Positions 19,301 through 52,885 of a stretch of DNA of 64,000 nt are shown here, in pieces. Under the pieces are notes generated by a model, which was given only the letters and a program-made list of their open reading frames with translations, did not search any database and was not told the DNA's origin. The translations under genes and the position numbers were made by a program. Source of the DNA: Antedon mediterranea (lineage: Eukaryota > Animalia > Echinodermata); assembly GCF_964355755.1 (NCBI RefSeq), contig NC_092672.1, forward strand, positions 2,046,001 to 2,110,000, in the 5' to 3' direction. Position 1 is the first letter of the stretch. Each line of letters begins with the position of its first letter.

Positions 19301-21744
19301 ATAGGATGAATATGAACATCCGGCACTTTCATTAAAATACATCGATTAAGAAATAATAAATATGAACGTTAACGTGTATTTCTAGGGATTATTCAAAGTC
19401 GTTATTCAAAAGGGAGGCGTTTATTCAAAGTGAGGCATTTATTCGAATAACCACGGTATTATATTCTCCGCGGCGCGGCGCGGTGTCTGTTAAGGGATGT
19501 AGTACTGATCATGTCGCAGCCACAGATAAACCCTTTGATTTCCCGGAGCTCAGCACCCTGTTGTTAGATTGCTTGCCTACATCTCGGGGTATATTTAACT
19601 TATATATAACTCACATCGCATACAAAATCATATAGCGAGATCGACTTCTCAGTGAGTGCAAAGCTGAATTCGCCTTCCGCACACGCACGTCACGTAGTGA
19701 TGAATATGTTGTTTCTTCCAGATTGGGCGTGCCTCTCCGACTGGCGATAGCAAACCCGTGGCGTGGTTCCAGGCTGGGATCCATGCACGAGAGTGGATAT
19801 CCCCGGCATCTATCATTTTCGTCACCCATAAAGTTAGTTTCTTCAAATAATTGTCATTATGAACATAAATTGTCATTTATGTTCAAGGGTAATGTACCGT
19901 AATGTATGTAAATTGAAGCATATTTGCTTTTTGAAAAGATAAATCGAAACTGGTACTTGTTGAAGAACCATCTTTCCATACATTCCTGGTAGCCATTGAC
20001 ATAAAGTTAACATTTGGATTAATGTTACTTTTAAGTGTACACAATACTTTTTTGTTTTTTGTTGAATCATCTTCAACACAGGAAAATTCATATAAAAATG
20101 TTTAAATAATCAGTAAAAAATCATCTATAACGAACATGGAAAAGTTATAAGTACCAATTTCACGATTAATTTCCAGTTGCTTTCAGGCTATGGATCGGAT
20201 AATGAAATCACTGCATTATTAGACGGATTGGATATATATATTATTCCTGTTTTAAACGTAGACGGATATGCTTACACTTGGACTAATGTAAGTGGAACAA
20301 GGACCCTACAGAACTCCCAGACAATGGTAGATTAACTTAGACCACCAAAAGGATAAATAAAATTGGAATAAACATTCAATTATATTTAGACACTGAAAAG
20401 AGGACATTTTGGAGTAAAGTTGTAGTTTATGGTTTTAATGTTTGGTTCCCAGGGCGTAACGTAAGCGTAACGTAATAAGTGATTTGACTCATCACAAGCG
20501 TTGAATTATTCAAACAGTCGCCTGTCATCAACACTTTGAACGCGTTTAACACTTTGAGCGCGTTCGACACTTTGAGCGCGTTCAACACTTTGAGCGCGTT
20601 CAACACTTTAAGCGCGTTCAACACGTTGAACACTTTGAATTCGTTAAACTCAACAGACGAATTGCAATAGAGGCGCTATATTAATTGTACATTACTTATT
20701 AGAATTCAATTGCACTATTGTCTTCATAGGATCGTCTTTGGCGTAAAACACGCTCAGAAAACAGTGATTCAATGTGCGTTGGCGTCGACGCTAATCGTAA
20801 CTATGATTTACATTGGGGTGGTAAGTTGCCATTTATACTCCTTTATTCCGTCATAAGCATGTACGTTATACACTGTCTGTGAACACGTTAAAGTGTCTTT
20901 CTCGGTTCAATTCTACAGATGCCGACGGAGCGGATGTAAACCCATGTAACGAAACGTACAGAGGCACTGAGGCTACATCAGAGGAAGAAATCAAGGCTGT
21001 CACCAGATATATGCAAGGTGTCGTAGATTCTGGTGATACTATACGACTTTTTATCGACTTCCATTCGTATGGCCAGGTATGGATGGCCCCATGGGGGTAC
21101 ACAGAGGATCCATCAGATGACTTCGAAGATCAGAACAACCTTCAGGCCGACGCCGTCGAAGCACTAACGGCTGTTCATGGAACAAACTACACATATGGAC
21201 AGATTTCCCAAACCATGTGTACGTAATTATTATATTATGGATTATTAGGATAATGATATATTTAACGGTGTATATTTTCATTGTTACTATCACATACATA
21301 TGCAATGAATTAACATTAAGGTTACTCATTATTATGCACGACGCCCTAAGTCCCAGTTGGCGCCTGACGTGGAGTAATTCTACGCATGTGCGTAGTAGTC
21401 GACTCCTATCAGACGGCATGTCATGGTCGAAAACCGACTCGAAACGCCCTAAATTTCTCGCGCATGCGCGTAGCAGACACGTCGTCTCCACATATGCTGG
21501 CCAAAAGCAAGCTTCATCTACTGTATCTATTGTTATAATTTGGTGTAAATTGGTGTTATTTTCAGACAAGGCATCCGGATGCAGTGTGGACTGGGCTTAT
21601 GGCGCACTTGGCGTCTTATACTCATACACGATAGAACTGCCAGATACAGGGGATTTTGGATTCACTCTGCCCCCTGAACGAATTGAATCAACGGTTACTG
21701 AATTATTTGAAGGTCTTAAGGTGGCCTTAAATCATATATTATAA
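13331..21744 (+). CDS. M14A zinc carboxypeptidase (carboxypeptidase A-like preproenzyme), 431 aa, 9 exons
   Basis: Exons 13331-13407, 14811-14895, 15114-15353, 17496-17597, 19722-19832, 20177-20287, 20730-20820, 20919-21218, 21566-21744, all GT-AG and in phase. Signal peptide [19 protein letters not shown], pro-domain VDFW...PVDIAVSP, and motifs [47 protein letters not shown]. Confidence 0.93.
13513..14487. repeat. Minisatellite, 16-bp unit (TCAAATCTGCAACTTA), about 60 copies
   Basis: Nearly perfect tandem array in intron 1 of the plus-strand carboxypeptidase. Confidence 0.97.
15777..16250. repeat. Minisatellite, 54-bp unit, about 9 copies
   Basis: Unit TTTTGACTCAGATGAGCAGACACACTTTCTGTATTAAATATAATATAGGTCTAC. 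Confidence 0.95.
16531..16626. repeat. Minisatellite, 23-bp unit, 4 copies
   Basis: AAACATGGCACCGTCAAATGGGC repeated. Confidence 0.9.
17655..17960 (-). mobile_element. tRNA-derived SINE with a CORE-like domain and an L2-type tail
   Basis: Minus strand: head GGGTGTGTGGCATAGTG...GTTCGAATCTC, core CCTTAGGCAAGATACTTTAC...CCACCCAGGTGTATAAATGGG, and 3' GGCGCTATATAAATC, which matches the LINE tail at about 59275-59290. Confidence 0.65.
19390..19458. mobile_element. Probable terminus of a Tc1/pogo-like MITE
   Basis: Repeated (G)GCGTTTATTC(A/G)A subterminal motifs ending in ACGGTA. Confidence 0.35.
20530..20640. repeat. Minisatellite, 18-bp unit (AACACTTTGAGCGCGTTC), about 5 copies
   Basis: Visible tandem units directly following a family-A MITE fragment. 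Confidence 0.85.
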
Positions 21745-25565: not shown

Positions 25566-27177
25566 AATAGGCCTATACGTGATAAACCTAGTTGTTATTT
25601 TTTATGACGTACCACCAGTACAGTATGCATTGAATTTTATCATCAATATCGAGCATAGCATAGCAATTAAATAAGAATTTACAATAAGCCGAGAGTAGAT
25701 AATTCAATTCTGTCAAGGTCCACACACGATATCAATTTTGATTCTTTCTATCCCGGGTTCGATACCAATGACCTACTGCTTGAAAACCAATAGAGGCATC
25801 CGGAGATGCATGACTGATTTTGTTTAAATAACATATAAATAAAACTCCAAATAAGTAAGAGAGATGGAAGTCATGATTCGATGTTTCAATCTATGTGATC
25901 AATATCAACAGGAATTAAAATATGACGTCATAGGCAGACGATATGTACAACTATACAAAAGGTATTATGTAGGCCTACCAAATGAGGAATATCGAACCAT
26001 GGTCTATTAATTATGATCCGACTTTTCCATTTTTTAGGCCTAGAGTTTATTTTGATGTATGTCTTATGGGCTATTATAGGATTTCCGAGTGTCCATTTAA
26101 TGGAAGTACATACCGTAACGGTACCTCATTCTAAGTATACCAGAGGTCATTATTTTTAAAACAATAAGGTTTTTACTACTTTAAATCTGATTTGATCCCT
26201 TCATTCATGTAAGTAAGAAATCCGATTATACAATCCGAGATTTCGGATTATAAATGAAAATCCAATTAAAAGAAAGTTGAAAATCCCGTTTTATTTTACC
26301 GTTACCTTCAGTGCTTCTTATAAAAGTGATAACAAAAAGCGTTTTGTTTTACTGCACGACACGACCAATTCAATCGACAGGTAAATAAAATAAAGCCACA
26401 CAATAATTGGCTTGGTTCCCACCCACACAACGCAACGACATGACGTAGTGGGCCGGCAGGCAGAGCGCGCAACGAATTCACACAGCAGCAGACAGTTCGG
26501 ATAATCCATCGCTTATGATTGGTCAAATTACTTACGGTGCGCTTGCGTTGCGTCTAATAACCCATCCGTTATAGTCTATCGATTAATCAATACAGCGCCA
26601 GTGGTATAATACAGTTAAATCACAAAATTCACAGTAACTGGCCATCCCATATGTACTGAGAACAACAGCATGTATTCACGTCGGACACGCCATTGCTAAC
26701 GGATTTAAAAAAAAAACTCGTTCTTTTAGACAAAATATATAAAATATTAAAAAAAAAAACCCCTGAACAAACGACCATTCATTAGGCTTACGTTATCTAT
26801 TAAAATGAGAATGACTTTGGTAAAAAGCTTGACCCACGTATAATCTGTATCTATTCTAGGCGGAAAATCGCGTAGTAGCTTGACCCACGTATAATATGTA
26901 TCTGTTCTAGGCGGAAAACCGTACCGCTGTTACCGCTCGTCTGTAGTGTACTGTAGTTTGTCTATGACAAAGTCAAAACGAGGCTCCTCCCATGTTAAAT
27001 TCAGCTTAATGATTGGCTCTCACTTTATATGGCATTTCCCGTGTGTATCACAAATCTGTAATAGCCACATATCATCATAATTAGTGACCGTATGCTAGAC
27101 GTGTAACAACAGTTCTTTCTCTGTTACATATTACTTTGAAGATTTAACAGAAAGAAGTAAAACTAAAATCTAACAAA

Positions 27178-30100
27178 ATGTCAACCACCAAAGATAATAC
27201 ATGGGAAGACACGATGTGGGATTCATATAACTTTCTGATGAAATGCCCGGATGTGGATCGTCTTCGTAAAATTCTAGTACGACATGAGTTATTCCAAAAA
27301 TCATTAACTGTTCCAGGTAAGTGCAATTTATGTTAATCTATGTTAATATATGTTATGTGCACGCACGCGCTCCCAATTTGACCCGTCACAATATCACGTC
27401 GTTGTTCCCATAGAGATATTTTCACTATACTCTAGTCTATGTTTGGTCGTCCTCATAGTACTGTACATATAACATCTTATAAAATATCTGAAACTTTGTG
27501 TTTTAAAATATGAATATAAACATTTATAAAAACTGTACATAAAGAAAAACAACACCAAACAGATTGTCTAGAGACAATGAATTCCTATAATCATATCGTT
27601 GCAACGAAAGGTGGTTTTAATATATACTTACAAAATGATAAATTGTCCTACTACAGTACTACTACTACTAGTAGATAAATCCTTGTCGGGCGAAAAAATC
27701 GTTAATGCAGTCGTTAAAAAGATTACGGCAAGACAACGATTTCTTTACCGACAAGCTTCTTTTTTAAATGAAAATGCAAGAAAAATTTTAAGCTATGCAC
27801 TTATTCAATGTAACTTCGATTATGCATATTCATCGTGGTATTCTGCCACTACAAAGAAATGTAAAAATAAGTTACAAGTCATGCAAAACAATATGGTTAG
27901 ATATAGTTTAAGTAAAGGACCAAGAACCCATATTGGACAGAAAGAGTTGAATAAACTAGGATTATTAAATGTCGAAGACAGAGTAACTCAAATTAAGTTA
28001 AATACAGTACATAAGATTTTAAATAATTTCGCTCCCTCGTATTTAAATGAATATTTTGATAAGGTGTGTGACCAACATAGCCATGGTACACGACAAAGTG
28101 AATTCAACTTCATTCCGCCAAAAGCATCTAAAGCTATCGATGGAACTTTTTATGCTACAGCCATTAATGACTGGAATAAATTACCAAACGACATAAAAAA
28201 CACCATGAGTGTTGGGATATTTAGAAAACTGGTTAAAGAATACTTAACGAACAAAAGAGAAAACCGGTAAATAAGGATAAAATAATTTAAAATCACAATA
28301 CAATACTACAGGACCCCAACGGAAATAAACATAGGTAATTGGTTTTTTTGGGCTATCCTGGTCGAAATCAACTTAACTGTTTTATTCTCATGTTCATAAC
28401 TTTATTCTGCTGCTCTCTTTTTAACTGAACGCTTTTTAATATTCTTTTGTCTTTTTATAACTTGTTTTTTTTATGACTTTTTTAAACTATGGTACTGAAC
28501 GATATTCTGTTTTAATGCTGTATTTTATGCCATTTTTAACTATTTTTAAGCCATTTTTTAACCTTCATTTTAGACTTTTGCATTGTTTTTTGATTGTTTA
28601 TAACATTTTTTCCTTATTTTTAATTGTGTCAAGTTTTAACTTTTTGTATTGTATGTAACATTGTTATGTAATCATGTATTGTATGTTGATTTTGACCGAA
28701 TAAATGAATGAATGAATAGTAGTACTAGACCTCTTAATACAATGTAGTAATTACAGTGATGTATAGCTTAATTCATGGAGGTATACACTTAATTTTATAG
28801 CTCCATGATTTAATCACAGTACGAATCCCTGCCCACCAGGAAGGAAGTTGAATTACAATACAACTCCCTTCGCTAGCCTTAGGTTTTCAGATATCAGAAA
28901 GGGGCGTGTCCAAGACGACGCGTTAAATAAATGCCATTTCTTCTAACCTTTGATTGGGAATGTTTATAAAAGATCAAACCATTTGGAATTATATTTCCTT
29001 AGTTGTTTAGACAACTCATCTTGAATATCATACGATTTAATGTGTACTAATAATAGACTCGGGGTCGAAAAAAACTTGTTTTGTTGTAGACTGTCTTTCT
29101 TGTCTGGCAAACTATTATTACCTCCACGTTTACAACTATACACTTTTGGTCAGCATTTCCGATAATCAGCATCCTTCCGTGCATCCATGCTGGTAAATTT
29201 TTTTAGATTTTATGTAGGCCTAACTATGATTTTTTCTGGCTGTTTCACTTTATCGTTTTGATTTAGCTTTTCGCTTTTTTTTGTATCTCTATTGAGATCC
29301 ATCCACTGATTTTCAGTAATTTGCCTTTGGATTTATGATTCAAAATATTTTTTTTTTATTTCATAAGCATCCAACAGCGTGTGACTCGCCAATTACAGGA
29401 TGGATAGACTATTTTATAATTTATCGTGCTTTTATAAAGTAAGTCTCATTTGAGGCTTATGTGTTCAACAGAGTCGTGAGTTATACAACTCTGGCACTAA
29501 TATTTAGGATTGAACCCTGGACCCTAGGATTGGAAGGCAAGCACATTACAGCAAGCCACAGCTCCATTAATTCATTTTATATTTTATTCAAATTATAAAA
29601 TCTCAGAATGAAAAGCCAACAACCGAACTAGGAACTTTCTACCTGATATGCACAGGGAGTTGGATTATTTTACGACTCCCTGGTCCTAACCATTTTAATA
29701 GACCACTGGGGCGTTCATGTTCAAATTCGATTTGAGCGACACCCTCGGCGTGTCGTACGCATATATAGGTGATTGACAGACAATATGAAAGTTATGTTAC
29801 TAAATAATATAATTGTGATAACTGCTACAGTACAAGGTTGACAATTACAATCGATTTTAATCAAACAGCCGTTTGACTGTTAAATGAACAATATAGCAGG
29901 GATGATTTTCATTCATCATTTATGAACGAACCATTGTGAATAATATTAACAACAATAATAATAATAATAATAAATACTGTAGTATAATTTTTTTAATTCG
30001 CAATCATTCATAAAAGGTCAATCATTCATAAAAGGTCAAGACTCTTTGTGTAAATATAGATTAGTATTCGTGCGAGTTGTATTGTTCTGTAGCGTATTAT

Positions 30101-33100
30101 TGTATATTTTACAATTATTATTACTATTTTTTCAAATTACTTCGATTTATTATTTATTTAATTCAAATTATATTCCTTGATCGCACTCACTCACCTCAAA
30201 AGAAAAGGCCCGCAAAAAGGTTTCAACATAATCGCTTTCCTTATAATGAATTGAACTGGTTAATGCCAGAATCTTATGAAATATGAAATGCAGAATGAAT
30301 TTTTACCTAAAGTAAAAGTAAAATAAAATGAATTGTTAGTTTCACGTCCCGTCACGATTTTATTAGTTTACTATTTTATTGTATTTTACTAATACGTCAA
30401 AATCGTGATCCCTTTCTTCTCATTTTGCTCATGGCAGAGGTTGCAACTCTTTGGTTAATTGAAAATACAATATAGATCCCGGATGTGAAACGAAATTCCG
30501 TATCCGGTACTCTGATTTATCAGGGAGTAGTCCTGGATTAATGCAATAAATGCAAATTTAAATTAATTACTATCTACTTTGCCACTCTTTGATAAAGGTA
30601 CCTGTATATATGTTGCATTTGTTATGTTATAATCTTATTTTCTGTTATATTTATATTTACCCTAGTTTTTGTTTGATGATAAAAGTCTGACATGATTTTC
30701 CGAAAAAACTATAATACATCTGAAAGAGTGAAATTAGAGTGTAAATTCACTCTTTCCTGGTTCAACAACAACAACAACAACACATTAATTTATAATCTTT
30801 ATGGAAAACACGATATGTTCTTCCAAGTTAGCTCAGTGTTGTCTTTTAAATTGTTTTTTTTTTCAACTTTTCGGCGTCGTTTTCATTTCTGTTTTGTTTA
30901 TTTTTTTTCGCATTCCGAATATTCCGAAATTGGTGGTTGTTGTTTTTTGTTTGTTATTTGGATGCGCTTTTATAAAAAAAAGAATGGCGCTTTCGTAAAT
31001 GTGAAATTACCACTACAACTTGTTGTTATTAGTATTATTAGGCCTAATCAAAGCAAAACGAGATGATGAAAAATGGCAAAACGCTTTCTACTTTCAGGAG
31101 GTTTATGTGGTTAAAGTTATAAGCTGGAAATTTATCAAACTTTACTTACTTTCACCTTACTTTAAAACAAATTATAGGAGTGTCCAGTGTATTAGGTACC
31201 CCTTTTAGTGGCTCCAATGGACCATATAACATTGTATTTGATGACTCCTATATAAACAGGATAACTTAATGACTAGTGCTGATTTTGCAATTTTTGTCTA
31301 AAAACTAAATAGGGCCAGTGGAGTGGAAGCTTTGTACTGTATTTGAAAACAATATTTTTAGTCTAAGTAATAATGAAAACTTAATGACGTCTTTGGCTAC
31401 TTGTTATTGATTGTTTGACGGTCAGCGCGTAAGCCCACTTCAGCGCGTAAGCCCGGGTCACAGCTAACAAAGTACAACATTATTTGCATTTCATTGAACA
31501 AGAATTAATTAAGAACAAAGGTATAACAAATATTATTTTTTTATTCACAACAGGCGATATTGTGGAATGTGGTGTATTTAAGGGTACCGGATTAATGCAA
31601 TTCCTGAAGATGCGACAAATGCATATGCCAGGCTCTATGAAGAAGGTTTGTTACTTCGTCATTCAAACACATACAATCATCATATCATAGTATAAAGTTT
31701 CTTGTCCCCTTATCAGCAGATAAGTTTCCGTTTGATATTTTAATTTTAAAAAATGGTTTTCATGTAGGCCTACATTTTGTATATTCGCAATCAATCTGAA
31801 TTCGATTCGCGCGAATGTCTTATCGCTAATGGAAAACAAGCTGTTTTATATAAAGTAAAATTAATAATAAAACTAGGTGTAATAACTAAAAGTTACCACA
31901 TAACAACAATACACCAAAAACCTTGAATATAATTCCCCATGCATAAACTATTTGGAGCACACAAAAGAGAAAATAACTATTTGCCGATGAAGACACACAC
32001 CCACAATCCTAATTCCACTTGACAATCAGTCGACGGTTCGTGGTTGGTTGCGGTTGAGTAAAGACGCACAAATCCTAATTCCACTTGACAATCAGTCGAC
32101 GGTTCGTGGTTGGTTGCGGTTGAGTAAAGACTCACAAATCCGAATTACGACTTTGCTTTTGTTTTAAATTCTTGTTCCCATTAGCAGCACAAGGACGTAA
32201 GGCAAAGATTTAACCAATCACGGTCGAGGGATTATAAAGAGTGTTTGCATTGATCCAAGCTAAAGGCCGTGATGTTGTGAAGCCAATTCGTTCTTTTGCT
32301 GATCTTGAAAACATTTAACTCTTATTTTACACATACATGGAACTGTTTAGATCCATTTGATTTTTTCAAGAACATATTTTGTTTGCATAAACTCTTAATT
32401 TTTGAAATTATTATTAATTTATTTACCTTACATTTAAAGTGTTTCCTCAACTTGTTTATTCATAATTTCTTTTTCTGAATTTCCTAATTCATTATTGAAA
32501 TATTGTTCTCGTTTATACTTTTTCAACATTAATAAGACATTTTTTATATATATATATATATTTTTTTTTTATTTTTTTTTTCAAGAAAAAAAAATGTGTA
32601 GGCACTTTTTATCTCTATGGAGACTGATCTCTGGTATTCCACTTGGTACTTTTATTTTTCTCATTAACCTGTCCCCAGTTTATCTGGTTTTGTTTTTGTG
32701 TTGGATTTTTACTTGTTTATATGTCATTTTCTTCCCAAATGAACCCCTGTACCGAAACATTTCCTAACCAAGATCGATTAAATAATTTAATTTTCAACCC
32801 ATACGCAGACTATGATAAACATGTTCATGACTTTGACCCTGATACCAATTTCCTCTCTTCCTCTATCCAGCTCAATTGTAAGTACTATCAACCTGACCAA
32901 CTAACCAACTTAATTGGAGAGCTCAGTAACGTGAAACACTTTTCTTCCTTGCATATTAATTCTAGAAGTTTACTTCATAACATTGATTCTTTCAAATTAT
33001 TTTTAACCAATGTAAATTATGATTTCGATATAATTGCAGTCTCGGAAACCTGGTTGAAAGATGATAATCCATTAACCAATATCTCCAGTTATTCTTTCAT

Positions 33101-36100
33101 TTCAAAAAACAGACTTGGGCGGGCTGGTGGAGGTGTAGGGCTGTATGTTCGAAATAACAATGTGTTCAAAGAGAGAACTGATCTTTTCCTAGACCCCTCC
33201 CTATGCGACTCCCTTTTTATTGAACTTGAACTTGAATCCAATCAAAACATTATTGTTGGTGTAATCTATAGGGCACCATCTCTTGATACGAATGCTTTTA
33301 TTGACGCTTTTGATCTCCTGTTAAATAATCTAGCAAAAACCAACAAAAAAATTTACTTATTAGGTGATTTTAACATTGACCTACTTAAACATCAGTCCGA
33401 TAATCAATCCAACAATTTTGTTAACTCTGTCTTTAGTAATTTCCTTTTACCCTTAATCAATAGACCAACTCGTATTACCCGAACGTCAGCAACATTAATT
33501 GACAACATATTATCTAATCAAATTGAATCATCAAGTCTATCTGGACTTTTCTATAGTGACATTAGTGATCATTTGCCCATTTTTAACATTACACCCTTAT
33601 CAAATATACCAAACCGTCCCAAAAACTATGTAAGCCCTAATCATACCTACAGAAAATTTAACGAAACAAATATTTCAAACATAAACAACGATTTGTCTAA
33701 CATGAATTGGACTGGTGTTTATGGTACGGATGATCCTAATTTATTTATTTATTTTTTTTATTTATTACGGTATATATAAAATTACAAAAACAATAGCACA
33801 TAGCTAATAAAGTTTGTATTACAATAAAAAATATTGAAATGAAATCTATAAAAACTACAATAATAAATTTGGAATATACAATTACAAAATTTCACAATAT
33901 TGCTTTACTTTCATTTGAAACTGAATTCAAACGACTGTATGATAAACATTTTCCAATTCAAGAGCAGTCTGCAGGGAAAAAAAAAATAAAGACCTGGATG
34001 ACGGATGAACTCTTAAATTCAATAAAGCATAAACAAAAACTGTATTCCAAATCCCTCCGCTATCCGAATGACAAAAACATAAATGAATATAAGCAATTCC
34101 GTAAGGAATGTTGCCCCTCTTATTTTAATAATTTTTACTGTTAATTTTTATTTTCTATGAAAGACAAGAGAAATAAATGTTACTTTGATTGATTGATTGA
34201 TTGATAAAGCTGTCTCTTGTCTTTGGTCAAATTGCTTGCGTTGCGTCTACGTCATTGCGTTGCGTCTACGTTGCGTTTTTCCGGAATACATCACATTTAT
34301 ATCATATGTATCGTAGATCAATACATAAAATCTCACATGATACAGACCAAATATTCATTGTAGCATGTGGCGATACTAGCACTAAGAATCGAGTACGTAT
34401 TTTGGAGTAACCTGTCGTAAAAACCTTTCGTATTTTACGACAGACTTAATTACAAAATACGAAAGCTAATTTTAGAAAATCGACAATAGACGGTTGTTAC
34501 AAAATACGTTTATTGCACAAAATACGACAGTTTGAATAATCAATCGCTCACTCGCGTTGCGTCTACTGCCGCCTTGCGTTGCGTCTACGACTGCCTTGCG
34601 TTGCGTCTACGACTGCCTTGCGTTGCGTCTGCGACTGCCTTGCGTTGCGTCTACGACTGCCTTGCGTTGCGTCTATGACTGCCTTGCGTTGCGTCTACGA
34701 CTGCCTTGGGTGGCGTCTACGGCTGCCTTGCGTTGCGTCTACGACTGCCTTGCGTTGCGTCTACGACTGCCTTGGGTGGCGTCTACGGCTGCCTTGCGTT
34801 GCGTCTACGACTGCCTTGCGTGGCGTCTACGGCTGCCTTGCGTTGCCTATCGGGAACCAAGCAAGTACAGGCTAGGTCAACTCAGACAGCGTCGTACTGT
34901 ACCACGAATCGTCTCATCGGGAGAAAATTAGACATGTTTCTCGCGACGAGCTAACGCCCGGCGCTATCTCAAGACGACTCGTCTCGTCGGGATTCAACGC
35001 AGCAGACAGCACCGACGAGTCAAGACGTTTCGTCGGGCCTCGTCGTACGATGCTGTTTTTGACCATAAATCAACTATAGTTTAACTATACTCCATTCATA
35101 TTTCCACAGGTAATTGGATTTGATTTATTTACTTCACAACCTAAATTAGAAGGAAACGATGATGTACAAATGAGCAAACTATTTACGAGTAGCAACTTCA
35201 AAGGGATACAACCCGAAGATTTACAAAATCAAGCCAAGATGATTTGCGGCGACAACTCGCTGTTTGAACTTGTAGCTGGTGACGTATGTACGTCTTGTTC
35301 ACAGGTATAGTACCATCGTCTGGCAATTCATTCGTCACGCTCTGTCTACACTATCAAACTAGTTTGACAAAAAACAATGATGAAATCATGTCACTACCAT
35401 ATTTGGGCATAAACACACTTTTTTTGTCAAATTAATTTGATAGTGTAGACAGAGCTTTACACAAAGTTCCTGTGTCATTCAGGCTTAGCTATTTAGCCGG
35501 GTACGTTGGTTTCATAGGGTAAAGAGTTAACTTTGGTGGGTCAGAACCGACTTACCCTGGTAAATAAATAAGCCTGAATATGCCTAAAGGGCAATTTAAG
35601 GCCAATTTACGGTAACGGTAAGCACAAAAAAAAACGCGTAGCTTACCCTATCCCACGTATAACCTGTATCTATCTTGAGCGGAAACCACCCGTCTGCTTC
35701 GCGTAGTGTGTGAATGGTCATAATGATAGATTCTGTATTTTGTATTACCGTTTCTTTACTACCGTTCTTTGTAAATTGGCCTTAAACATAATAATTACCG
35801 GTACGACACATTCAGGGCATAATACGGAGGTCTCCATGCCGTGCGTAAGGAGCGTATGTTTAATATAAAATTACGTTAATTTATGTTGTAAATTATAAAT
35901 AAATTAAATTTTTTTTTCACAGTATGTAGAAAACAATCCGGGATTTAGAATATCATTCCTACACATGGATTTGGACGTGGGACCGCCAACACTAGAAGCA
36001 TTAAAAGCATTGTGGCCACGAATTGTAAGGGGCGGAATTGTCGTATTCGATGAATATGCTATTTCAAGGTAGGTTGTTGAGGCTGATTTTATGGGGCGCC

Positions 36101-39100
36101 GTTTGGGACCAATTTATTATTTAAACATCCGATCGGCACCCCGTATATTTCTCTGCTGTATTTCCACATTAAAGCTTGGTTGCCACTAGGACGCAACGCA
36201 AGGACGTAGACACAACGCAAGCGAGTTGACTAACTAATGACAAGCGTGTGTTGCGTCTCTAGTGGGAACCACGCGCATAATGGGGCGCCGTTTGGGACGC
36301 TGTTAATTGTTGAAATAGTAGAAAGTCATAAGTACTTGGGATTAATAATTGATAATAAACTAAATTGGGAGAGCAACACTAAAGAACTCCGTACCAAGGC
36401 TAATAAGAGAATGTACTTTATATACAAAATGAAACGGTTTAATGTTAGTTCTCATCTCATTCATATGTTTTATTCCTCTGTTGTTCAATCAATCATTTCT
36501 TATTGTATTATTGTTTGGTTTTCTCATATCAATGTAAATAGTAAAAGTCAAATTCAGAGATTAGTAAACAAGGCCAGCAGAGTTATCGGTGTAGAAGTGA
36601 AATCTTTAGATGAAATGTTTAATACATTCATACTTAAGAAATTTGACACAATTATGCAAGACCCATCACACCCATTACATTCAGACATCATTATAAGTCG
36701 ATCAGGAAGGGTTAGACTGACACAGGAAAAAATATCCACAAACCGTTTCAGATTTTCACCAATGTACATAGCATGCAATTTATTTAACAAAAACTTTTCA
36801 AGATAGTCACTTGTATCATTTGTATTTATTTATATTGTTATCACATCGTATTATTTATTCTACTCAGGTACAAAACATATCTCGAAATTGTTAACAATTT
36901 TGACAATAAAGTTATCTTGTATCTTGTATCTTGTTGTATGTCAACATCCGGACGGCGCCCCGTATGTTTAACTAATTAATTCGATATTTCTCTGCCGTAT
37001 TTCCTGTGTCAAGTATCAGCATATTCCATGTGATGACGTAGGCTATAGCGGAAATTGTCTGATATAATAATAATAATTTTTTTGGAAAACGCGTTTTGAA
37101 CAGCGGCACACATAATAATGGTGCATCCTTAAAACAATTAAACATACAATATAAAAAATATGAGTATAAAAATAAAGATAGACTAGATTAAAACAGATAA
37201 TACTCAGATAAAACGGAAGTTCGATAAAACCAAATTAAAAATAAACTGTAATACTAAAACCAATTAAATGCAACCCACATAAGCTTGGACACTAAATTAG
37301 CATATCAATTAGTATATGAACAAAGGAATATACAGTACTTAGAATCTATGTTAAGATATACACATTCTTGATACACAGTGTCTACCAGCAAAAATAATAA
37401 GGAACAATAGGAACCCAAATTAGGGACATCAATAAACAGGAAAGCATAGATTAAATTATTTCAGCTGTGGTGAATTATTTGATGACTGTAAACAGAATTA
37501 AGATAACTAAACCAACTTACATACAATAAAAAATTTAAAAAAATCATTCGATAATGTTATACTTTATACGTTGTCTAAAGGCCCATGCTTTCTTAAGATA
37601 TGATTTGCAGAATTTATCAAGAATGTCATGGGCTTTGTTTACCATATTAATCGACATTGTTGGAATGAGAACAGAACAATCACCACCAAGTATAATCATT
37701 AAGATAACCTCTGAATTATTTAACTGGAGTGAATTCCATAGATCTGAAAGACCAGAATCATTAAGGTTTTGTTCCAAGCATTCAAATTCTGAAATTCGCA
37801 CTTCTTGTAGTACTTTACAATTTAACATAAAATGATATAAATCTTCAGGTTCATCCTTACATAACATACAATTACCAGTATTATTCATATCCCATTTACT
37901 TAATCTACTTTCAAGTTGAAGAGTATTTGACCTTGCCTTAAATTTCAATTGAGCACCATGAAAATCAGTTTTAACAGTAAGATAATTTTCTAACTCAGGC
38001 ATTTTTTTAAATTTAACATAAAGTGATAATGATGGTTTGGTACAGCTTTTATTAAACCAATCCAATTCATACATTTGACGATTAACACACTTAAAAGATT
38101 TAAACCATGCTGAATCTATAGGTATGTTATTTGAAAATACATGATTAAATCCAGTATTATTCAGAATACTTTTAATTGAGTTTAACCATCGCCATTTTAT
38201 ATTAACATTATTGTCATGCAAGGTAAATAATGCATGCAACAGCAGCTTTGGCCAACGATGGGCTTCTAAGTTGATAAGCCTGTCAAAATATTTAATTTTT
38301 ATTTCATTATGGGTATTTTCAATGCAGTAAGCAAATACTTAACTCTATACTACATACCGGTCCCCTACTTTGGAACTCTCTTAATCCGTCAATAACTAAT
38401 AGCAAAACAAATAATACTCTAAAAATAAACTACAAATCTTATCTAATATCAAAATATAAAGTAAATTAATTATTTTGATCATATTAATAACTTATAATTA
38501 AATTTAATTAGGCAAATCATATAAATACAGTTTGTCCTTCCTGTCGTCCTTGTCGTGTTTGTATCGTCGTACATGTCCGTCTCTGTCTGTCAGTAGCGTA
38601 CCATCACTTTGCTTATTATTATTATTTTTAACTTTTTTATTCTTTCTGGTGGATCCAGGCTTAAAGCCCCTTGGGGTTTAAATGGTATTCTCCAGGCATA
38701 ATGCAACTATTATTTACTTAATTTCCAACCACTTGTATCTTTTATATTTTGTATATGTTTGCATTATGTGAATAAATTTGAACTTGAACTTGAACTTGAA
38801 CTTGAACTATCCCATCCTAAGTCACCCAACAGAGCCAATGATGGCGTGTTCCAGTGTCAATTCGGTCTGAAACTAACTTTGATAGCTACTTTAAGCGTAA
38901 ACTAAAACGTTTCTTTTCCAACAAGTTTATGGATTAAATTTCGCTGTACAAAGCTTTTGATAATATAGCGTTATATCAAATTTGCAATGTAATGTATACG
39001 GTTTGCCAATACCACACACTATCCACAATGTTATTGTAATTAAATGTACAATATAGCTATTAAATAATGAAATGATTAAGAACCAAGCAATTACCATCAG

Positions 39101-40400
39101 AAACTAATTATTTATTTATAAAATAATTTTATTGATTTTTAAGTACTGTAGACCTACTGCTATTGAAACACCGCGTATAATATATGTATAATGTATGTAT
39201 CAATAATTATTAGTTCTTGCCATCATTAGATAATATTTCATTTTACCCATTATTATGGCTAAAAACTTGTTTTTAAATAAAAAATAAACATATCATTAAT
39301 TTGTAAAAGACAAAATATTCTTTTAATTTTTCGAAGAGTTTTAATTTTATTTCTTAGGGCAACATTCTTCATTTAATTTCATTTAGTAATTAAATTGAAT
39401 TTTTTTTTATCTTTTGTGGTTTTTTAATTAAATTGAAATTTAAACAAAATAAATTGTTTCGGCATGCATGTAGACGTTACTGTCAATTACTGGAACATTT
39501 GATTATTTAGAATTAAATGATTTCGAACATGTTTCTAATGGTAGCTAGTGGCAGGAAACTCTTTGTACATCTAAGGATATATTAATTCGGTTATAATATT
39601 ATCACAATTTCCTATCTCTGTTTGAGTAATTCGTTCGTTCGTTTTCAGTGCTCATTTTGTATAACAGACAAAGGGACGTTTTTGGCGGAAGAAGAATGTT
39701 TAATTGTTGTTGTTGTTGTTGAATATGCCATTTTAATGTCACACAATAGATATAATTTGACTAAAAATTGGATCGAAAAAATATATATATACTGTAAATG
39801 TAATTTAAAGAAAAACATATTAAAATGTATTGATTTTTGGTTGAATTTAACTGTTTTTTGGGTTTTGCTGTTTTTTTTCCATACAAGTGTTTAACTTTAT
39901 TAAAACTTAAAAACTGCCTATTCAAAGTCTGGAAGAAGAAGATTCTTTGTTTTATATTTTTGAGGTAACCATAAAACATTTGTTACTACTATTATTGAGA
40001 TAATAAATACAAATTATATTTTAATTTGTCGCACGCATATTACACTCGAGGTAACAGCCGCATTCTGGGTCTAAACATTAGCTGGTCCTCGCGTGCCGCA
40101 CACATAATTACACTCAAGTCCTCGCGTGTCGCACGCATATTACACTATGATGTAACAGCCGCATTCTGGGTCTAAACATTAGCTTCTCGCGTGTCGCACG
40201 CATATAACATTCGAGGTAATATCAATGAGTTTTATACTGTAGGAGGCCTAAATAAAATAATTTGTAACTAATTCAATATTTTTTATTGCAGATGGTCTGA
40301 AAGTCAAGCAGTAGATGAATTTCTAAAAGATATGCCTGATCAAGTATTACAGACTATTCCATGGGCAAAGTCTCCAACCGCTTACTTGATTAAGAAATAA
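27178..40400 (+). CDS. TylF/MycF/NovP-family (macrocin O-methyltransferase-like) SAM-dependent O-methyltransferase, 226 aa, 5 exons
   Basis: Exons 27178-27316, 31554-31645, 35110-35304, 35923-36068, 40292-40400 (681 nt, GT-AG, phases 1/0/0/2). Protein: MSTTKDNTWEDTMWDSYNFLMKCPDVDRLRKILVRHELFQKSLTVPGDIVECGVFKGTGLMQFLKMRQMHMPGSMKKVIGFDLFTSQPKLEGNDDVQMSKLFTSSNFKGIQPEDLQNQAKMICGDNSLFELVAGDVCTSCSQYVENNPGFRISFLHMDLDVGPPTLEALKALWPRIVRGGIVVFDEYAISRWSESQAVDEFLKDMPDQVLQTIPWAKSPTAYLIKK. Family motifs: VPGDIVECGVFKG, GFD, LHMDLD, GGIVVFDEY, AVDEF. Confidence 0.9.
27672..28717 (+). mobile_element. 5'-truncated CR1/L2-group LINE (ORF2 C-terminus, 3' UTR, (TGAA)n tail)
   Basis: Post-RT motifs LIQCNFDYAYSSWY, KLQVMQN, APSYL, TFYATAINDWNKLP. 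AATAAATGAATGAATGAA tail. Confidence 0.85.
29500..29566 (-). repeat. Degenerate tRNA-derived SINE head
   Basis: Minus strand GAGCTGTGGCTTG...CCAGGGTTCAATCC, with box A/B-like motifs. Confidence 0.4.
32643..34105 (+). mobile_element. LINE ORF2 apurinic-like endonuclease domain (CR1/L2 group), 3'-truncated and interrupted near 33740-33900
   Basis: APE motifs LHINSRSL, IAVSETWL, GGGVGLYV, VGVIYRAP, LLGDFNIDL, RPTRIT...LIDNI, SDHLPIF. The frame continues with KTWMTDELLNSIKHKQKLY. Confidence 0.9.
34553..34848. repeat. Minisatellite, 22-bp unit (TTGCGTCTACGACTGCCTTGCG), about 13 copies, inside a family-A MITE
   Basis: Tandem units followed by the MITE end GGGAACCAAGC. Confidence 0.92.
35597..35784. 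mobile_element. MITE (Harbinger-like TIRs)
   Basis: TAAGGCCAATTTAC ... GTAAATTGGCCTTA. The internal motif is shared with 26827-26950. Confidence 0.6.
36305..36933 (+). mobile_element. 5'-truncated LINE (RT C-terminus, L2/Rex-like) with a (TATCTTG)n tail
   Basis: EIVESHKYLGLIIDNKLNW, FYSSVVQSIISYCIIVWF, DPSHPLH, TNRFRFS. AATAAA followed by a tandem tail. Confidence 0.85.
37080..38310 (-). mobile_element. 5'-truncated LINE with a C-terminal CCHC zinc knuckle (RTEX-like)
   Basis: ORF 38239-37544 with KFKARSNTLQLESR and CMLCKDEPEDLYHFMLNC, followed by an AT-rich 3' UTR. The 3' boundary is approximate. Confidence 0.75.
38650..38808 (+). mobile_element. LINE/SINE 3' tail
   Basis: Hairpin AAAGCCCC-TT-GGGGTTT, then AATAAA and (GAACTT)n. 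Confidence 0.45.
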
Positions 40401-46031: not shown

Positions 46032-46135
46032 AGCAGTGGACGAGTTTCTAAAAGATATGCCAGATCAAGTTCACAGACTATTCCACGGACAAATTAAATA
46101 TGAGCAAATAACGTGTTCGTGTAAACGACACGAAT
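46032..46135 (+). pseudogene. Decayed copy of the TylF-like gene last exon and 3' UTR
   Basis: GCAGTGGACGAGTTTCTAAAAGATATGCCAGATCAAGT encodes AVDEFLKDMPDQV, as at 40308-40346. It is followed by a 1-bp deletion and a larger deletion that joins to the UTR motif AAATATGAGCAAATAACGTGTT. Confidence 0.8.
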
Positions 46136-46503
46136 TTCGAACCACAGTCCCATGAGAAACTTCTTGTTACTTTATCTTGAGATTATTTAGAGGGTTGGGT
46201 TTAGTTAGATTTGGGAAGTAGTTCGACTACTTTTCACAAGATGTTCCCAACTTATGTACGAAAACAAAATCGCGTCCAAAAGATCTACTGTGTAGAGTTT
46301 AGTAAGTGTGGTGGGATCGATTCAGATTTGAAACCATGGTCTACCACTCTACCAGTCCATAATATCTACAAGATTGGTCGGATACGCTACTCAATCTAGA
46401 AACATTAAAGGGCATTTGTTTCAAGTTGTACAGCATTAAAAGAAACAGATACTGAAAACAAATTACTGATAAAAAACATGATTGTATACAATATTGCTCC
46501 TCT

Positions 46504-46935
46504 ATTTATTTTCTGCGGAAGCCCTTAGTGCACAATTTCTTAAGAACAGAGCATTATACAGTAAGTATGGTTATGAAGCCATTATATAAATATTGCATTA
46601 AGAAATTACCATTTATTATTTTCTGCGGAAGCCCTTAGGGCACAATTTCTTAAGAACAGAGCATTATACAGTAAGTATGGTTATGAAGCCATTATATAAA
46701 TATTGCATTAAGAAATTACCATTTATTATTTTCTGCGGAAGCCCTTAGGGCACAATTTCTTAAGAACAGAGCATTATACAGTAAGTTTGGTTATGAAGCC
46801 ATTATATAAATATTGCATTATGAAATTAACATTTATTATTTTCTTCGGAAGCCCTTAGAGCACAATTTCTTAAGAACAGAGCATTATACGGTAAGTATGG
46901 TATGAAGTCATTATATACATATTGCATTAAGAAAT
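46504..46935. repeat. Tandem repeat, 110-bp unit, about 4 copies (copy 1)
   Basis: Units start in register at 46511, 46621, 46731 and 46841. Confidence 0.92.
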
Positions 46936-47439
46936 ATTAATTTATTGAAAGCAAGCTAAACACAGTTTGACTTTTCGCACCAATTGAAATATTGCAGCTA
47001 AAATGTATTATTAAATTACTTAATTTGGTGCAGTAACATTTAAAGATATATTGTCCCCTTAAAAAAAAAAAATTCAAATTTGTTTTTTTAATATACCATT
47101 TTAATGTCACGTAATAGTTATTCACTTTGACCAAAAACTAGAACGGAAAAAAACAAACAATTATTTATCTGAATAAAATGTAATTTAAAGCAAAAAATAC
47201 TTAAACGTTCTGCCAGACAATGGTTTTGGGTTAAAATTAAATGTTTCTTTTGACTTTTTATAAGTGAAAAAATTATAAAATTTTTTTTACAGAAGTGAAT
47301 AACTTTATTAAAACTGCAAATGGCCTATATAAAGTTTGATTTTATTAATGTTCATTTTTCATGTTCTTAAACTAAAAAAAAAACATGTACTTAACAGAAA
47401 TATCGTTTAACAAAATATTTATTATATAAGGAATTGGAT

Positions 47440-47641
47440 TTAGTCCGTTTTGTTTTCTGTAAGTGGATATATCTGAGTGGCTGTGACTCCAACACTGCTT
47501 CTTCTGGAGCTCATACTGTTTAGAACCTTCCATCGTCTCGTCACTGGATTGTACCGTTCGACACCGTTTAGGCTACTGCTGCCGTTGTTGCCACCAATCA
47601 CGTACAAATGACCTTTTAACGCCACAGTGTCGTGTGTGCTT
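47440..47641 (-). pseudogene. KLHL17: Duplicated, intact KLHL17 terminal exon (pseudo-exon or alternative last exon)
   Basis: 202 nt with the acceptor TTATTTTAG kept and the frame open to the stop. It differs from 53349-53550 at 6 positions (3 synonymous, 3 non-synonymous). Confidence 0.75.
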
Positions 47642-48813
47642 CTAAAATAATATCAACATTTATACATAATAAATAATTACAAAGGATCAACATTATTCCC
47701 ACTCTTTAATAACACTGAACTCATGTAATGTATATCAACTCGATTAAACCTTTTTTTTTTCAATTCTAGTTAACATTTATTTCTTTCAAAACAAAACAAC
47801 AATAAAAAAGAACATTTCTTTTCATTTACAAATATTTTATGAAATTATAACAGACTAGAAAAGAAAGAAGTGTCTTTAAAAAAAAATGGTAATATATTTT
47901 TTTGAGTTTTGAAAGTGGCAAGGTCCCAAAAAGTAAAATCAAAAGGAAAAACCAATAGAAACTTGTGTTGGATAAGAAGAGATAATAATACTCTTTCATA
48001 CATATGAAAACATGAAGCAGCGGTGGAAGCTTTATGATTATGATGCTCGTTTTGTCAGTGAGGTCAGAGGTCATTTATTTTAATCACCTATTACCTGTAT
48101 AAGCTATGCTATGCTGAACATTGTAACAATTATGGACCAAAGATTATGTTTTCTCTTTTGTGAGTACTGTTCACTTATTATTATTACCATTTCCATTATA
48201 AACATCAATATACATATCATGTACACCACCAAAATTACGAGCAAGAATCAATATCATAAGGCATTTAATGAAAATGCAGACTGTTATGCGACATAAAATC
48301 TATTCTCATATCAGAACTATAATCAGCATATACATTTCATATCGCATAATATTATTATTTAAATTTACATTACTTTTTTTTGTATGTATACTATAACATA
48401 TGGTATGGTATCGGTAAATGTTTCTGTTTTGGAAGCAATTATAATAAATTAGTTTTAAATTCAGTAAATACAAATTAGGTTGATAATTGATTGATAAGTA
48501 ATGTAATGAAAACCATGAATAAATACTACAGTCAACTCTCCCAATATCAGAATTTTGGAAAACCAGAAACTCTCCCAATACCAGACTCTCTGAAACTGGA
48601 AACTTTCCCATACCAGACTCTCTGGAAACTGAAAACTTTCCCAATACCAGACTCTCTGAAAACTGGAAACTCTCCCAATACCAGACTTTTCTTGAAGACC
48701 AAAAGGTACCAAATCCTTTTTTACCATTGAAAACACATTCTGAATACCAGACTTTCTAGAAAACCAGACATATTTGGCCAGCCCAAAGGTGTCCGGTATT
48801 CAAAGAGTACCAA

Positions 48814-48850: not shown

Positions 48851-50355
48851 TCTTGTTTTTAACTTTTTAACTAATTGTATTACTTTTAAATATGAGCAAA
48901 TAACGTGTTTGTAGGCCTATAAATAAACACGAACTTAAACCCCGAAATCGCGACCCCTTTCATTTAAACAAGGTAGGTGTACAGAGAGGCTGAAATTTGG
49001 AACGTTGGGGGAATGGGATTCGTTCTTCCCCCAGGCCTCCGCATCGCAAGGAAATACACAATTTAACGTAAGCCAAGGATCATACTAGCTGTAAGGTCAA
49101 ATCACGGACCTATAAATGTATAGGTCCATGGTCAAATCAAGCTTGGTTCTTACATGGTAACGCAAGTGATTTGACCAATCACAAGCGATGGATAATCCAA
49201 ATTGTCTAAGTTTTTATTCCCTGATGCATTCATGGTTTCTGAAATGGTATGTTGAATACAAAAATAGAAAAAATGTATTGTTTCGTTTTAAATAAACATC
49301 TTTTCATGCGTGGCGTTATTACACAACGTCTGGGGATCGGAGAAAATATGCATGATGGTTTTGTATTAATGACTATAGCAGAATCATTCATGAACTCATG
49401 AATTTCTGATCAAAACCTATTGTATAAAGTTCACTTTATTAGACAATGTAATTGTAGAATAAACGATTACCAATGCGTTCAGGTAATAAAATCTGTTACG
49501 CACACATCATATCCACTAAATTTCTCAAGGCGCTTGTAGAAAAACTAATCCGTCAACGTAAAAAACAAACCTAGACAAAACCGACACAACTGCATTCAGT
49601 TTACCAGCAATTTAATTTACATAGACCGGCTGCTACATAACTCACAGGTGTTCTCAGTTTATGTGAGCATGTAACCAGACAATTAAAAACCTAAGGTTAA
49701 ATTATGCCAAAAGCATCTAACAGCTGATATGTCTTTTTAGTGTACTCTTGAAAAATGTAAAGTTGATTTGCTAGCACGAATAATGTGCATTGGTTAACTT
49801 ATTCTGTCCATATATGGGCACATTTTGTAGTCACATAAATGTTTATAGTGTAAACAGAGCTTAAGAGAAACGACAGTTCGAAGAATCCATCACTAAAATT
49901 GCGTTGCGCTTACCTTCTTCTTTCGTCCTTGTGTTACGACCAATCAAAAGTGATGGATCATTCAAACTGTCGCTTGTCATTGGTCAACTCGCTTGCGTTG
50001 CGTCTACGTCATTGTTATAATTTTGCGTAAATGAAAAGCGCTAGTAATGTTTAAATGTCAGCTCATGCTCAATGATGTGTCTAGATTCCCAGGTTCTTCA
50101 TAAAGTACACATTAATTAATTTATTTATTCAACTTAAAAATAAATAAAAACTTACTATATAAGATAAGATAAATAATAATAATAAAAAAAAAACAGCTGT
50201 GAATATCGACTAGTTCCGTGATAATCAATGATTGTGGGAACTCATAACGATGAAGATGAAGAAATTTGTTTTACAATGGTAGCTTCTCTGACAGCTGTAT
50301 TACAGCAGTACAGCTGACTTGAAAAGGCCCTACAACAATAAAATCACTGCATGTT

Positions 50356-52452: not shown

Positions 52453-52885
52453 CTATTTATTTTCTTCGGAAGCCTTTAGTGCACAATTTCTTAAGAACAG
52501 TGCATTATACAGTAAGTTTGGTTATGAAGCCATTATATAAATATTGCATTAAGAAATTACCATTTATCATTTTCTTCGGAAGCCCTTAGGGCACAATTTC
52601 TTAAGAACAGAGCATTATACAGTAAAGTATGGTTATGAAGCCATTATATACATATTGCATTAAGAAATTACCATTTATTATTTTCTTCGGAAGCCCTTAG
52701 GGCACAATTTCTTAAGAACAGAGCATTATACAGTAAAGTATGGTTATGAAGCCATTATATACATATTGCATTAAGAAATTACCATTTATTATTTTCTTCG
52801 GAAGCCCTTAGGGCACAATTTCTTAAGAACAGAGCATTATACAGTGAGTATGGTTATTAAGTCATTATATAAATATTGCATTAAC
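52453..52885. repeat. Tandem repeat, 110-111-bp unit, about 4 copies (copy 2), in the putative KLHL17 3' UTR
   Basis: Homologous to 46504-46935. Confidence 0.92.

Follow-up and report, generated by a model that had tools for sequence, protein, structure and literature searches.

The window analysed here, a stretch of 64,000 nt from the feather star Antedon mediterranea, contains on its forward strand a gene with five coding exons, at 27178..27316 (aa 1-46; N-terminal helices with the conserved D25, K31 and R35), 31554..31645 (aa 47-77; SAM-binding motif I, E51-x-G53), 35110..35304 (aa 78-142; a GFD motif and a lid region matching CalS11 loop L2), 35923..36068 (aa 143-191; D158/D160 and D185/E186) and 40292..40400 (aa 191-226 and the stop). 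All four introns run from GT to AG, with lengths of 4237, 3464, 618 and 4223 nt and phases 1, 0, 0 and 2. The spliced product of 226 aa plus stop is letter-for-letter the same as P0001, which is RefSeq XP_071945083.1, confirming an earlier note that had proposed in-phase splicing of five exons into an uninterrupted protein. Exon 4 alone scores above the cut-off of the Pfam TylF family, and its borders match those of the genomic gene call P0004. The 3' UTR extends to at least position 40700. No second copy of the gene, only fragments, was found within the window.

Assembled contigs bear on the splice-junction check that the earlier note had named. A single 1468-nt contig of run X5 joins across all four introns at the above lengths, and a 1038-nt contig of run X9, from a related organism (organism B) and another study, joins across introns 1-3 and stops within exon 4; both runs were taken as transcript-derived on the one ground that their contigs skip the introns. 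Run X1 resembles DNA and may be the sample from which the assembly was made; its contigs span the borders between exons and introns with no mismatches, and depth there is even (281-313). The contigs of run X6 (organism B) take in exons 1-4, those at exons 2-4 continuing into the introns. Six synonymous and two non-synonymous differences to organism B are listed in the coding sequence. The X5 and X9 contigs also carry ~390-460 nt of 5' sequence with no placement on 26900-27140. Because of this unplaced sequence, and because the first coding exon has a non-coding lead (27142..27177, forward strand) with an AG acceptor at 27140-27141 and an in-frame stop ahead of the ATG, the exon count of the gene exceeds five, with one or more further exons on the 5' side. 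Five is thus the number of coding exons but not of exons in the whole gene.

The four LINEs previously described in the introns are fragments, and Pfam backs three of them: an endonuclease fragment in intron 2 (32628..33779, forward; PF03372) and two fragments in intron 4 (36234..36806, forward, PF09004; 37544..38338, reverse, zf-RVT, PF13966). The remaining ORF, in intron 1 (27581..28270, forward), looks by eye like a LINE reverse-transcriptase tail; it has no Pfam match but lies in a region of multi-copy depth. The flanking genes, two M14 carboxypeptidases and one BTB-BACK-Kelch gene, are ordinary animal genes on both sides, as had been stated. As the family is of bacterial type, contamination or mis-assembly comes to mind. 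However, spliced contigs come from two organisms in two studies, the depth is even and single-copy with contigs running from exon into intron, animal genes adjoin, and the orthologues track the echinoderm tree. Contamination or mis-assembly is vanishingly improbable and is ruled out by the spliced and exon-intron contigs. The gene is integrated in the host genome and expressed. The evidence thus supports the earlier note in that this is a genuine host gene, spliced, belonging to the TylF Pfam family and retaining the catalytic acids.

The protein matches Pfam TylF (PF05711) with 42.3 bits against a gathering cut-off of 23 (E 7e-11), so the proposed HMM search bears out the family. The match covers positions 90-243 of the 264-position profile, the N-terminal part not being common to both. 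The NCBIfam and PHROGs profiles gave no match for P0001. The glutamate and glycine of motif I (E51, G53), the DxD motif (D158/D160) and the later acidic pair (D185/E186) are conserved at 98-100% in the 260 nearest rows. Neither a signal peptide, as had been observed, nor a membrane segment is present. In the predicted structure (pLDDT 80), the protein is modelled as a class I Rossmann methyltransferase of the NovP/MycF/CalS11 type, and CalS11, SpnH, MycF and NovP make up the first 18 rows listed by Foldseek.

TylF, MycF, NovP and SpnH, whose substrates are finished antibiotic glycosides, share with the feather-star protein PF05711, the fold (TM ~0.7), the DxD motif and the acidic pair, but identity is only 18-21% (E 1e-3 to 1e-4). 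The earlier assignment to the TylF/MycF/NovP group therefore stands for the Pfam family; the nearest characterised relative is instead CalS11 (E 1e-15 vs ~1e-3). Orthology to TylF, MycF or NovP was rejected, given the partial profile match, the low identity, and close relatives that lie in clusters with the sialic-acid synthase NeuB and a CMP-synthetase. CalS11 is a TDP-rhamnose 3'-O-methyltransferase (PDB 3TOS, 4GF5, 5HOQ; PMC4760980). It is the top solved match by both sequence and fold (E 2e-12, TM 0.72), it is likewise soluble, and its D189, D191, D216 and E217 align with D158, D160, D185 and E186. However, identity to CalS11 is 24-26%, the relatives of the feather-star protein are found in ulosonic-acid clusters rather than TDP-deoxyhexose clusters, and the feather-star gene has an animal host and introns. 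The best viral fold match is the C-terminal domain of CroV crov267 (UniProt E3T537; 40% identity, TM 0.84). In this viral fusion protein the domain is joined to a Kdo-8P synthase, and the gene lies in a ulosonic-acid cluster next to CMP-synthetase and phosphatase/isomerase genes. By prediction alone, it has been annotated as a dTDP-6-deoxy-L-hexose 3-O-methyltransferase (PMC9614988, section 3.1.2.4).

Gene context was counted within 6 kb of the best 80 of 387 GTDB relatives. A NeuB gene lies in this range in 46/80, within 700 nt in 21/80, and the NeuB-adjoining relatives span 12 named phyla; a CMP-synthetase gene is near 40/80. Among other TylF genes of the same genomes, used as a control, NeuB is near only 1 of 20, and that one is within the same cluster. 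The comparison of matched subfamily genes with this control (13/18 vs 1/20) gives a Fisher p of 2e-5, which ignores kinship. In the 34 relatives that lack a near NeuB, a full NeuB (E<1e-50) is encoded elsewhere in 23 genomes, leaving 11/80 genomes with none. Close relatives of eukaryote or virus type have sialylation-type neighbours: contig L162 carries TylF, NeuB, CMP-synthetase and a GT29 sialyltransferase; L163 carries NeuB, CMP-synthetase, TylF and a nucleotide-sugar transporter; and L166 carries a CMP-synthetase-NeuB fusion, TylF, a HAD phosphatase and a transporter. The only PDB matches of the L163 and L166 transporters are CMP-sialic acid transporters, and all three contigs fall in the 22-row tree group of the animals (90/91). 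The NeuB association of the subfamily and these neighbours are the new observations of this work. Overall, the majority of the microbial and probable giant-virus relatives lie among genes for making sialic acid.

Not all relatives follow this pattern. NeuB is found at 0/80 loci of a phage-rich clade, where a HAD/nucleotidyltransferase gene adjoins in 74/80 and CMP-synthetase occurs in 22/80 loci and in 7 of 21 whole records searched. On contig L167, no sugar genes were seen alongside the subfamily gene. When viral contigs were scanned with the single proteins P0001, P0022 and P0045, no close relative came up; the A2 scan mostly returned the same phage-clade contigs.

Among the several candidate substrates of the earlier note, the context of relatives points to sialic or ulosonic acids. 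We moderately favour the view that the protein is a putative cytosolic SAM-dependent enzyme that O-methylates sialic acid, either free or CMP-activated, a view drawn from relatives at ~50% identity, since the feather-star neighbours are unrelated genes. An enzyme of the TylF/CalS11 type would methylate the sugar in the cytosol, before Golgi entry, with D160 acting as the base and D158, D185 and E186 holding the metal. An SLC35A-type transporter could then carry the methylated CMP-sugar, and GT29 sialyltransferases would add it as a methylated, chain-ending cap to gangliosides and glycoproteins. The methyl group would go to O-8 or O-9, and we lean towards the terminal primary hydroxyl, which is O-9 in Neu/Kdn and O-8 in Kdo.

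Echinoderm glycans characteristically bear O-methylated sialic acids, 9-O-methyl sialic acids occur in gangliosides of Comanthus japonica (which we take to be a synonym of Anneissia japonica), and sialate O-methyltransferase activity has been on record from the 1990s onwards. The starfish sialate-8-O-methyltransferase is membrane-bound, and we know of no gene for it. It shares with the feather-star protein the phylum and the proposed reaction type. The two are probably different proteins, as no starfish homologue is named among the matches listed. The starfish SAM:sialate-8-O-methyltransferase goes back to Kelm et al. 1998, as cited in PMC6994554. 8-O-methyl sialic acid has been reported in starfish and sea cucumbers, and methylated Kdn in amphioxus (PMC6994554). 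Brittle-star NeuGc is frequently methylated (PMC7616688), in a brittle star different from the one bearing the homologue. Oscarella possesses a sialyltransferase (PMC5811610), and CMAH provides a precedent for modification of a CMP-sugar (PMC9630641). Sialic-acid O-methylation has been proposed to halt chain growth and change sialidase action (PMC3509529), and for a starfish ganglioside glycan the C8 methyl is required for nerve-growth activity (PMC4699235). Among the openly licensed PMC/bioRxiv papers and passages searched, none names a gene for sialic-acid O-methylation or a nonulosonic-acid O-methyltransferase gene.

The sialic-acid reading draws on the NeuB association, the full NeuB elsewhere in most genomes that lack a near one, the three cassettes, the CroV fusion, the nucleotide-sugar stage at which CalS11 works, the brittle-star, Oscarella and CMAH reports, and the mostly synonymous differences to organism B. 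Against it, an identity of ~50% leaves room for a change of substrate, starfish, sea cucumbers and amphioxus have methyl sugars while no homologue from them is named among the matches listed, and the phage-rich clade, the 11 genomes without full NeuB and L167 do not fit. Further, NeuB clusters also contain other methyltransferases, and relatives at ~30% identity lie in NDP-deoxyhexose clusters in 3/3 cases viewed. The last point, with distant relatives adjoining rfbC/rfbG, would suit an enzyme that, like CalS11, methylates a neutral NDP-sugar, be it a hexose or a deoxyhexose (GDP-fucose, UDP-xylose, UDP-glucose), so that methylated neutral sugars would end up in glycans or glycosides. CalS11 ranks first by sequence and by fold, and one Atlas cluster is automatically named dTDP-6-deoxy-L-hexose 3-O-methyltransferase. 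We nevertheless judge this unlikely, as identity to CalS11 is low and the closest relatives with context have sialylation cassettes. NDP-sugar epimerases do lie within 6 kb of 32/80 bacterial relatives, but with 7/20 in the control they are not enriched, unlike NeuB.

Alternatively, the enzyme may be linked to ulosonic acids in microbes, the animal copy having shifted to another cytosolic acceptor such as a small glycoside, an inositol/polyol or a pigment hydroxyl. Stand-alone copies in myxobacteria, two copies each in crinoids and the brittle star, and an animal range that differs from the occurrence of 8-O-methyl sialic acid speak for this. Yet the animal protein retains the basic and acidic residues found across the subfamily (K31, R35, K56, K65, D25, E194), and a full NeuB is still present in 11/12 stand-alone myxobacteria-type genomes, compared with 54/150 others sampled in the phylum. 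Such a shift thus also seems improbable.

Named animal homologues among the matches listed come from crinoids, one brittle star and two homoscleromorph sponges, Atlas taxa being left out of this range; none is named there from starfish, urchins or chordates, and the best 120 of 1330 and best 120 of 7704 matches name none from starfish, sea cucumbers or amphioxus. The family, bacterial-derived and travelling with ulosonic-acid pathway genes, would have been present in echinoderms before the crinoid-brittle star split. A single direct transfer from a bacterium to echinoderms, with sponge copies separate or from symbionts, is conceivable but doubtful. In FastTree, animal rows nest in groups with bacterial and viral rows, and both FastTree and a quick tree set sponge copies apart from echinoderm copies. 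An AU test tolerates echinoderms forced with six bacterial rows (p-AU 0.096, no rejection), and the Corticium-cluster genomic gene call P0174 reads through the echinoderm intron 4 site. However, the careful tree of 54 rows, from which P0041 (intron read-through, branch 3.4), the CroV row and near-duplicates were removed, unites echinoderms and both sponges with eukaryote/virus-type contigs in a group that contains no GTDB bacteria (90/91, unstarred), and a branch at 71/81 has all the animals on the same side. The data would suit equally well a gene that came in by way of a giant virus or an alga, or an ancient gene retained here and lost widely elsewhere. The old bacterial acquisition proposed earlier is neither borne out nor contradicted: the animal rows nest among microbial and viral rows, but there are also copies in homoscleromorph sponges and on contigs of eukaryote or giant-virus type, the three trees conflict on animals as a single group, and the AU test decides for neither side. 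Among the openly licensed PMC/bioRxiv papers searched, no title concerns horizontal transfer of an animal TylF, and no title or abstract opening on crinoid or Antedon gene transfer or methyltransferases deals with this gene.

More tentatively, and with slightly less than even confidence, the whole subfamily may represent an unrecognised sialylation step, carried out by a soluble enzyme that O-methylates (CMP-)sialic, Kdn and Kdo-type acids. Its gene would move among bacteria, giant viruses and algae in one cassette together with those for the synthase, the phosphatase, the CMP-synthetase, the transporter and the sialyltransferase, and would have been acquired by feather stars, brittle stars and homoscleromorph sponges. 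If the sialic-acid reading is true, this would be the first gene for animal sialic-acid O-methylation, at the nucleotide-sugar stage. As the candidate is small and soluble, one expression experiment could test the question, and the enzyme could serve as a tool for producing methylated sialosides. On the same reading, many bacteria, and CroV too, should bear methylated ulosonic acids, and a widespread automatic annotation would be reinterpreted.

The methyltransferase gene in the window is real. Its five coding exons on the plus strand (27178-27316, 31554-31645, 35110-35304, 35923-36068 and 40292-40400) are joined by GT-AG splicing, with intron phases 1, 0, 0 and 2, into an open 226-aa frame, and the product, P0001, is RefSeq XP_071945083.1, whose gene name is automatic only. 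A single 1468-nt contig of sequencing run X5 omits 4237, 3464, 618 and 4223 nt, each GT..AG, and in run X9 (organism B, separate study) a 1038-nt contig omits introns 1-3; both runs were classed as transcript-like solely from these intron-skipping contigs. The five coding exons of the earlier note are thereby borne out, and the junctions it proposed to look for in transcripts are joined at all four introns in X5 and at the first three in X9. In the DNA-like run X1, possibly the assembly's own sample, exon-intron borders are spanned at a depth of 281-313 with 0 mismatches, while X6 (organism B) contains exons 1-4, with intron flanks for exons 2-4. Six of the eight listed coding differences between the window gene and X9 are synonymous (141 S, 537 N sites). 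At their 5' ends the transcript-like contigs carry some 390-460 nt that belong upstream of 26900, so there is at least one further exon; the interval from the carboxypeptidase gene to 26900 is the probable site of one or more non-coding exons.

The spliced protein matches Pfam TylF as predicted (42.3 bits, profile positions 90-243 of 264). The proposed kinship with TylF, MycF and NovP holds at the level of the Pfam family, but CalS11 is closer: it is the best solved-structure match by sequence (E 1e-15), profile and fold search, whereas SpnH, MycF and NovP are weaker (E 2e-4 to 1e-3). D158, D160, D185 and E186 of P0001 align with CalS11 D189, D191, D216 and E217; D160 is thus the counterpart of D191, the putative base (PMC4760980). 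These four residues, like K31, R35, K56 and K65, are conserved in 98-100% of the 260 nearest rows. P0001 contains no hydrophobic segment (top 19-residue Kyte-Doolittle value 1.04) and an in-frame stop precedes its ATG, so that a cytosolic location, as first suggested from the lack of a signal peptide, is likely.

The host is a feather star, and the nearest named protein belongs to the crinoid Anneissia japonica (82%). Named animal matches among the best 120 of 1330 and the best 120 of 7704 come from Anneissia, Amphiura filiformis and Corticium candelabrum, with two genes each among the matches listed, and from Oscarella pearsei, with one transcriptome record; within the same matches no starfish, urchin, sea cucumber, hemichordate, chordate or protostome is named, which does not prove absence. 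Both Anneissia genes sit on a scaffold of identical length. In isoforms X1 and X2 of the paralogue LOC117107184 (P0042/P0176), but not in X3, the N terminus is extended by a stretch enriched in S, T, R and L that by eye resembles a mitochondrial presequence. P0004, encoded on a 711-nt contig, reads through into intron sequence; over its 49 matching residues it shows no difference from the brittle-star-like P0006, and this match starts and stops at the borders of exon 4 of the window gene. P0005/P0041 terminate at the intron-4 site. Introns 3 and 4 appear to predate the crinoid-brittle star split.

The gene context of the relatives is the main new evidence and points to a specific, cheaply testable function. 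Of the best 80 of 387 GTDB loci, 46 have the sialic-acid synthase NeuB no more than 6 kb away (21 of them no more than 700 nt away), 40 have a CMP-synthetase in the same range, and 52 have at least one of the two. The loci with NeuB nearby come from 12 named phyla and occupy 17 of 34 phylum/order bins. Other TylF genes in the same genomes have NeuB nearby in 1/20, itself in a shared cluster, compared with 13/18 for matched subfamily genes (Fisher p 2e-5, kinship not corrected). A full NeuB (E<1e-50) is encoded elsewhere in 23 of the 34 genomes whose loci have none near; these include 11/12 stand-alone myxobacteria-type genomes, most of which are related to one another, vs 54/150 others of that phylum. 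NeuB is near in 24/80 metagenome loci, many on short contigs. Separately, P0195 is a histidine-phosphatase fused to a methyltransferase of this subfamily, and P0265 (1656 aa) holds six near-identical repeats of a more distant one.

Metagenome contigs grouping with the animals carry eukaryote-type sialylation cassettes: L161 has NeuB and an intronless Rpb1 without heptad tail; L162 and L163 both have NeuB and a CMP-synthetase, accompanied by a GT29/GT7 fusion protein on L162 and by a nucleotide-sugar transporter on L163; L166 has a CMP-synthetase-NeuB fusion, HAD and transporter. The only PDB matches of the L163 and L166 transporters are CMP-sialic acid transporters. L161-L163, which are compact and intronless, are likely of giant-virus origin, and L166-L167 may be alga-derived. 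The methyltransferase genes at L166:356-4707 and L167:1310-6580 are near-identical in differing surroundings; in L167 the gene adjoins B3-domain ORFs like those of plants or algae, and no sugar gene is apparent there. The giant virus CroV has the domain as part of a Kdo-8P synthase fusion protein (E3T537, crov267) that adjoins CMP-synthetase and phosphatase/isomerase genes, a cluster with no validated activity according to PMC9614988 (section 3.1.2.4). The phage-rich clade has NeuB in 0/80 loci, a CMP-synthetase in 22/80 (7/21 whole records) and a HAD/nucleotidyltransferase adjoining the gene in 74/80. In the viral contigs L001-L080 the gene stands next to a HAD/nucleotidyltransferase fusion and a 144-aa ORF of no known kind; a subset adds an HpcH aldolase, CMP-synthetase and GT29-like protein (15/80), which suggests that a ulosonic acid is made there without NeuB.

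We lean, by a little, towards P0001 being a cytosolic SAM-dependent, probably metal-dependent, O-methyltransferase of sialic acid. Free or CMP-bound sialic acid would be methylated in the cytosol, imported into the Golgi and transferred as a capping sugar. Phosphatases beside the closest cassettes (L085, L089, L164 and L166 by Pfam; L162 and L163 by eye) and the Kdo fusion tilt us weakly to the terminal primary hydroxyl as the putative site. Crinoid gangliosides reportedly contain 9-O-methyl sialic acid, and the starfish sialate methyltransferase is said to be membrane-bound. Counted in favour are that NeuGc is often methylated in brittle stars but not in the N-glycans of one sea cucumber (PMC7616688), and that Oscarella possesses a sialyltransferase (PMC5811610). 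Counted against are the NeuB-free phage-rich clade and the lack of any listed homologue from starfish and sea cucumbers, which methylate O-8, or from amphioxus, which has methylated Kdn (PMC6994554, PMC8228791). Three plasmid relatives (30-33%) adjoining deoxyhexose genes also count against it and would fit methylation of an NDP-hexose instead; we consider this unlikely, since NDP-sugar epimerases are not enriched (32/80 relatives vs 7/20 control TylF genes). That P0001 has shifted to a small-molecule acceptor seems similarly doubtful. In the main texts of the open-access literature searched, we found no paper on an animal TylF-type gene or a cloned sialate O-methyltransferase, and only the CroV annotation linking TylF-type genes to ulosonic-acid clusters.

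Family membership is mostly microbial and viral. In a careful tree (54 rows, 222 columns, midpoint root; P0041, CroV and near-duplicates excluded), the echinoderms form a clade (99/92) in which crinoids and brittle stars stand apart, with the relatives P0043/P0044 as sister (94/83). A 22-row group (90/91, unstarred) unites echinoderms, both sponges, L162, L163, L166 and other rows, and contains no GTDB bacteria. Unlike this tree, FastTree (428 rows) and a quick tree (84 rows) place the sponge copies apart from the echinoderms. A branch with all animals on one side received 71/81, and a constraint that joins the echinoderms to six bacterial rows could not be rejected (p-AU 0.096). With these trees, more than one donor and either one or several entries into animals are plausible.

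The flanking genes are ordinary animal ones, as described earlier: two M14 zinc carboxypeptidase genes that point away from each other (1885-8120, minus; 15099-21744, plus), both with a propeptide exon, and a minus-strand BTB-BACK-Kelch gene. A 1.35-kb duplication (46377-47729 and 52327-53638, 89%) doubles a Kelch exon (47443-47652, 53352-53561) at the 3' end of the latter, and 48309-48755 resembles 54606-55004. Four intronic LINEs had been reported; Pfam supports three of the fragments and not the other. Very high-copy short elements in intron 3 (35339-35459, with opposite-strand joints at 35374-35409) and intron 1 (~29230-29400), with summed X1 contig depth >400,000, are likely MITEs. Tandem arrays lie at 13510-14487, 34550-34850 and 55026-56894 (the last with period ~46 nt), and parts of exon 5 and the 3' UTR recur downstream in decayed form (87-94% identical) at 46032-46125 and 48856-49131.
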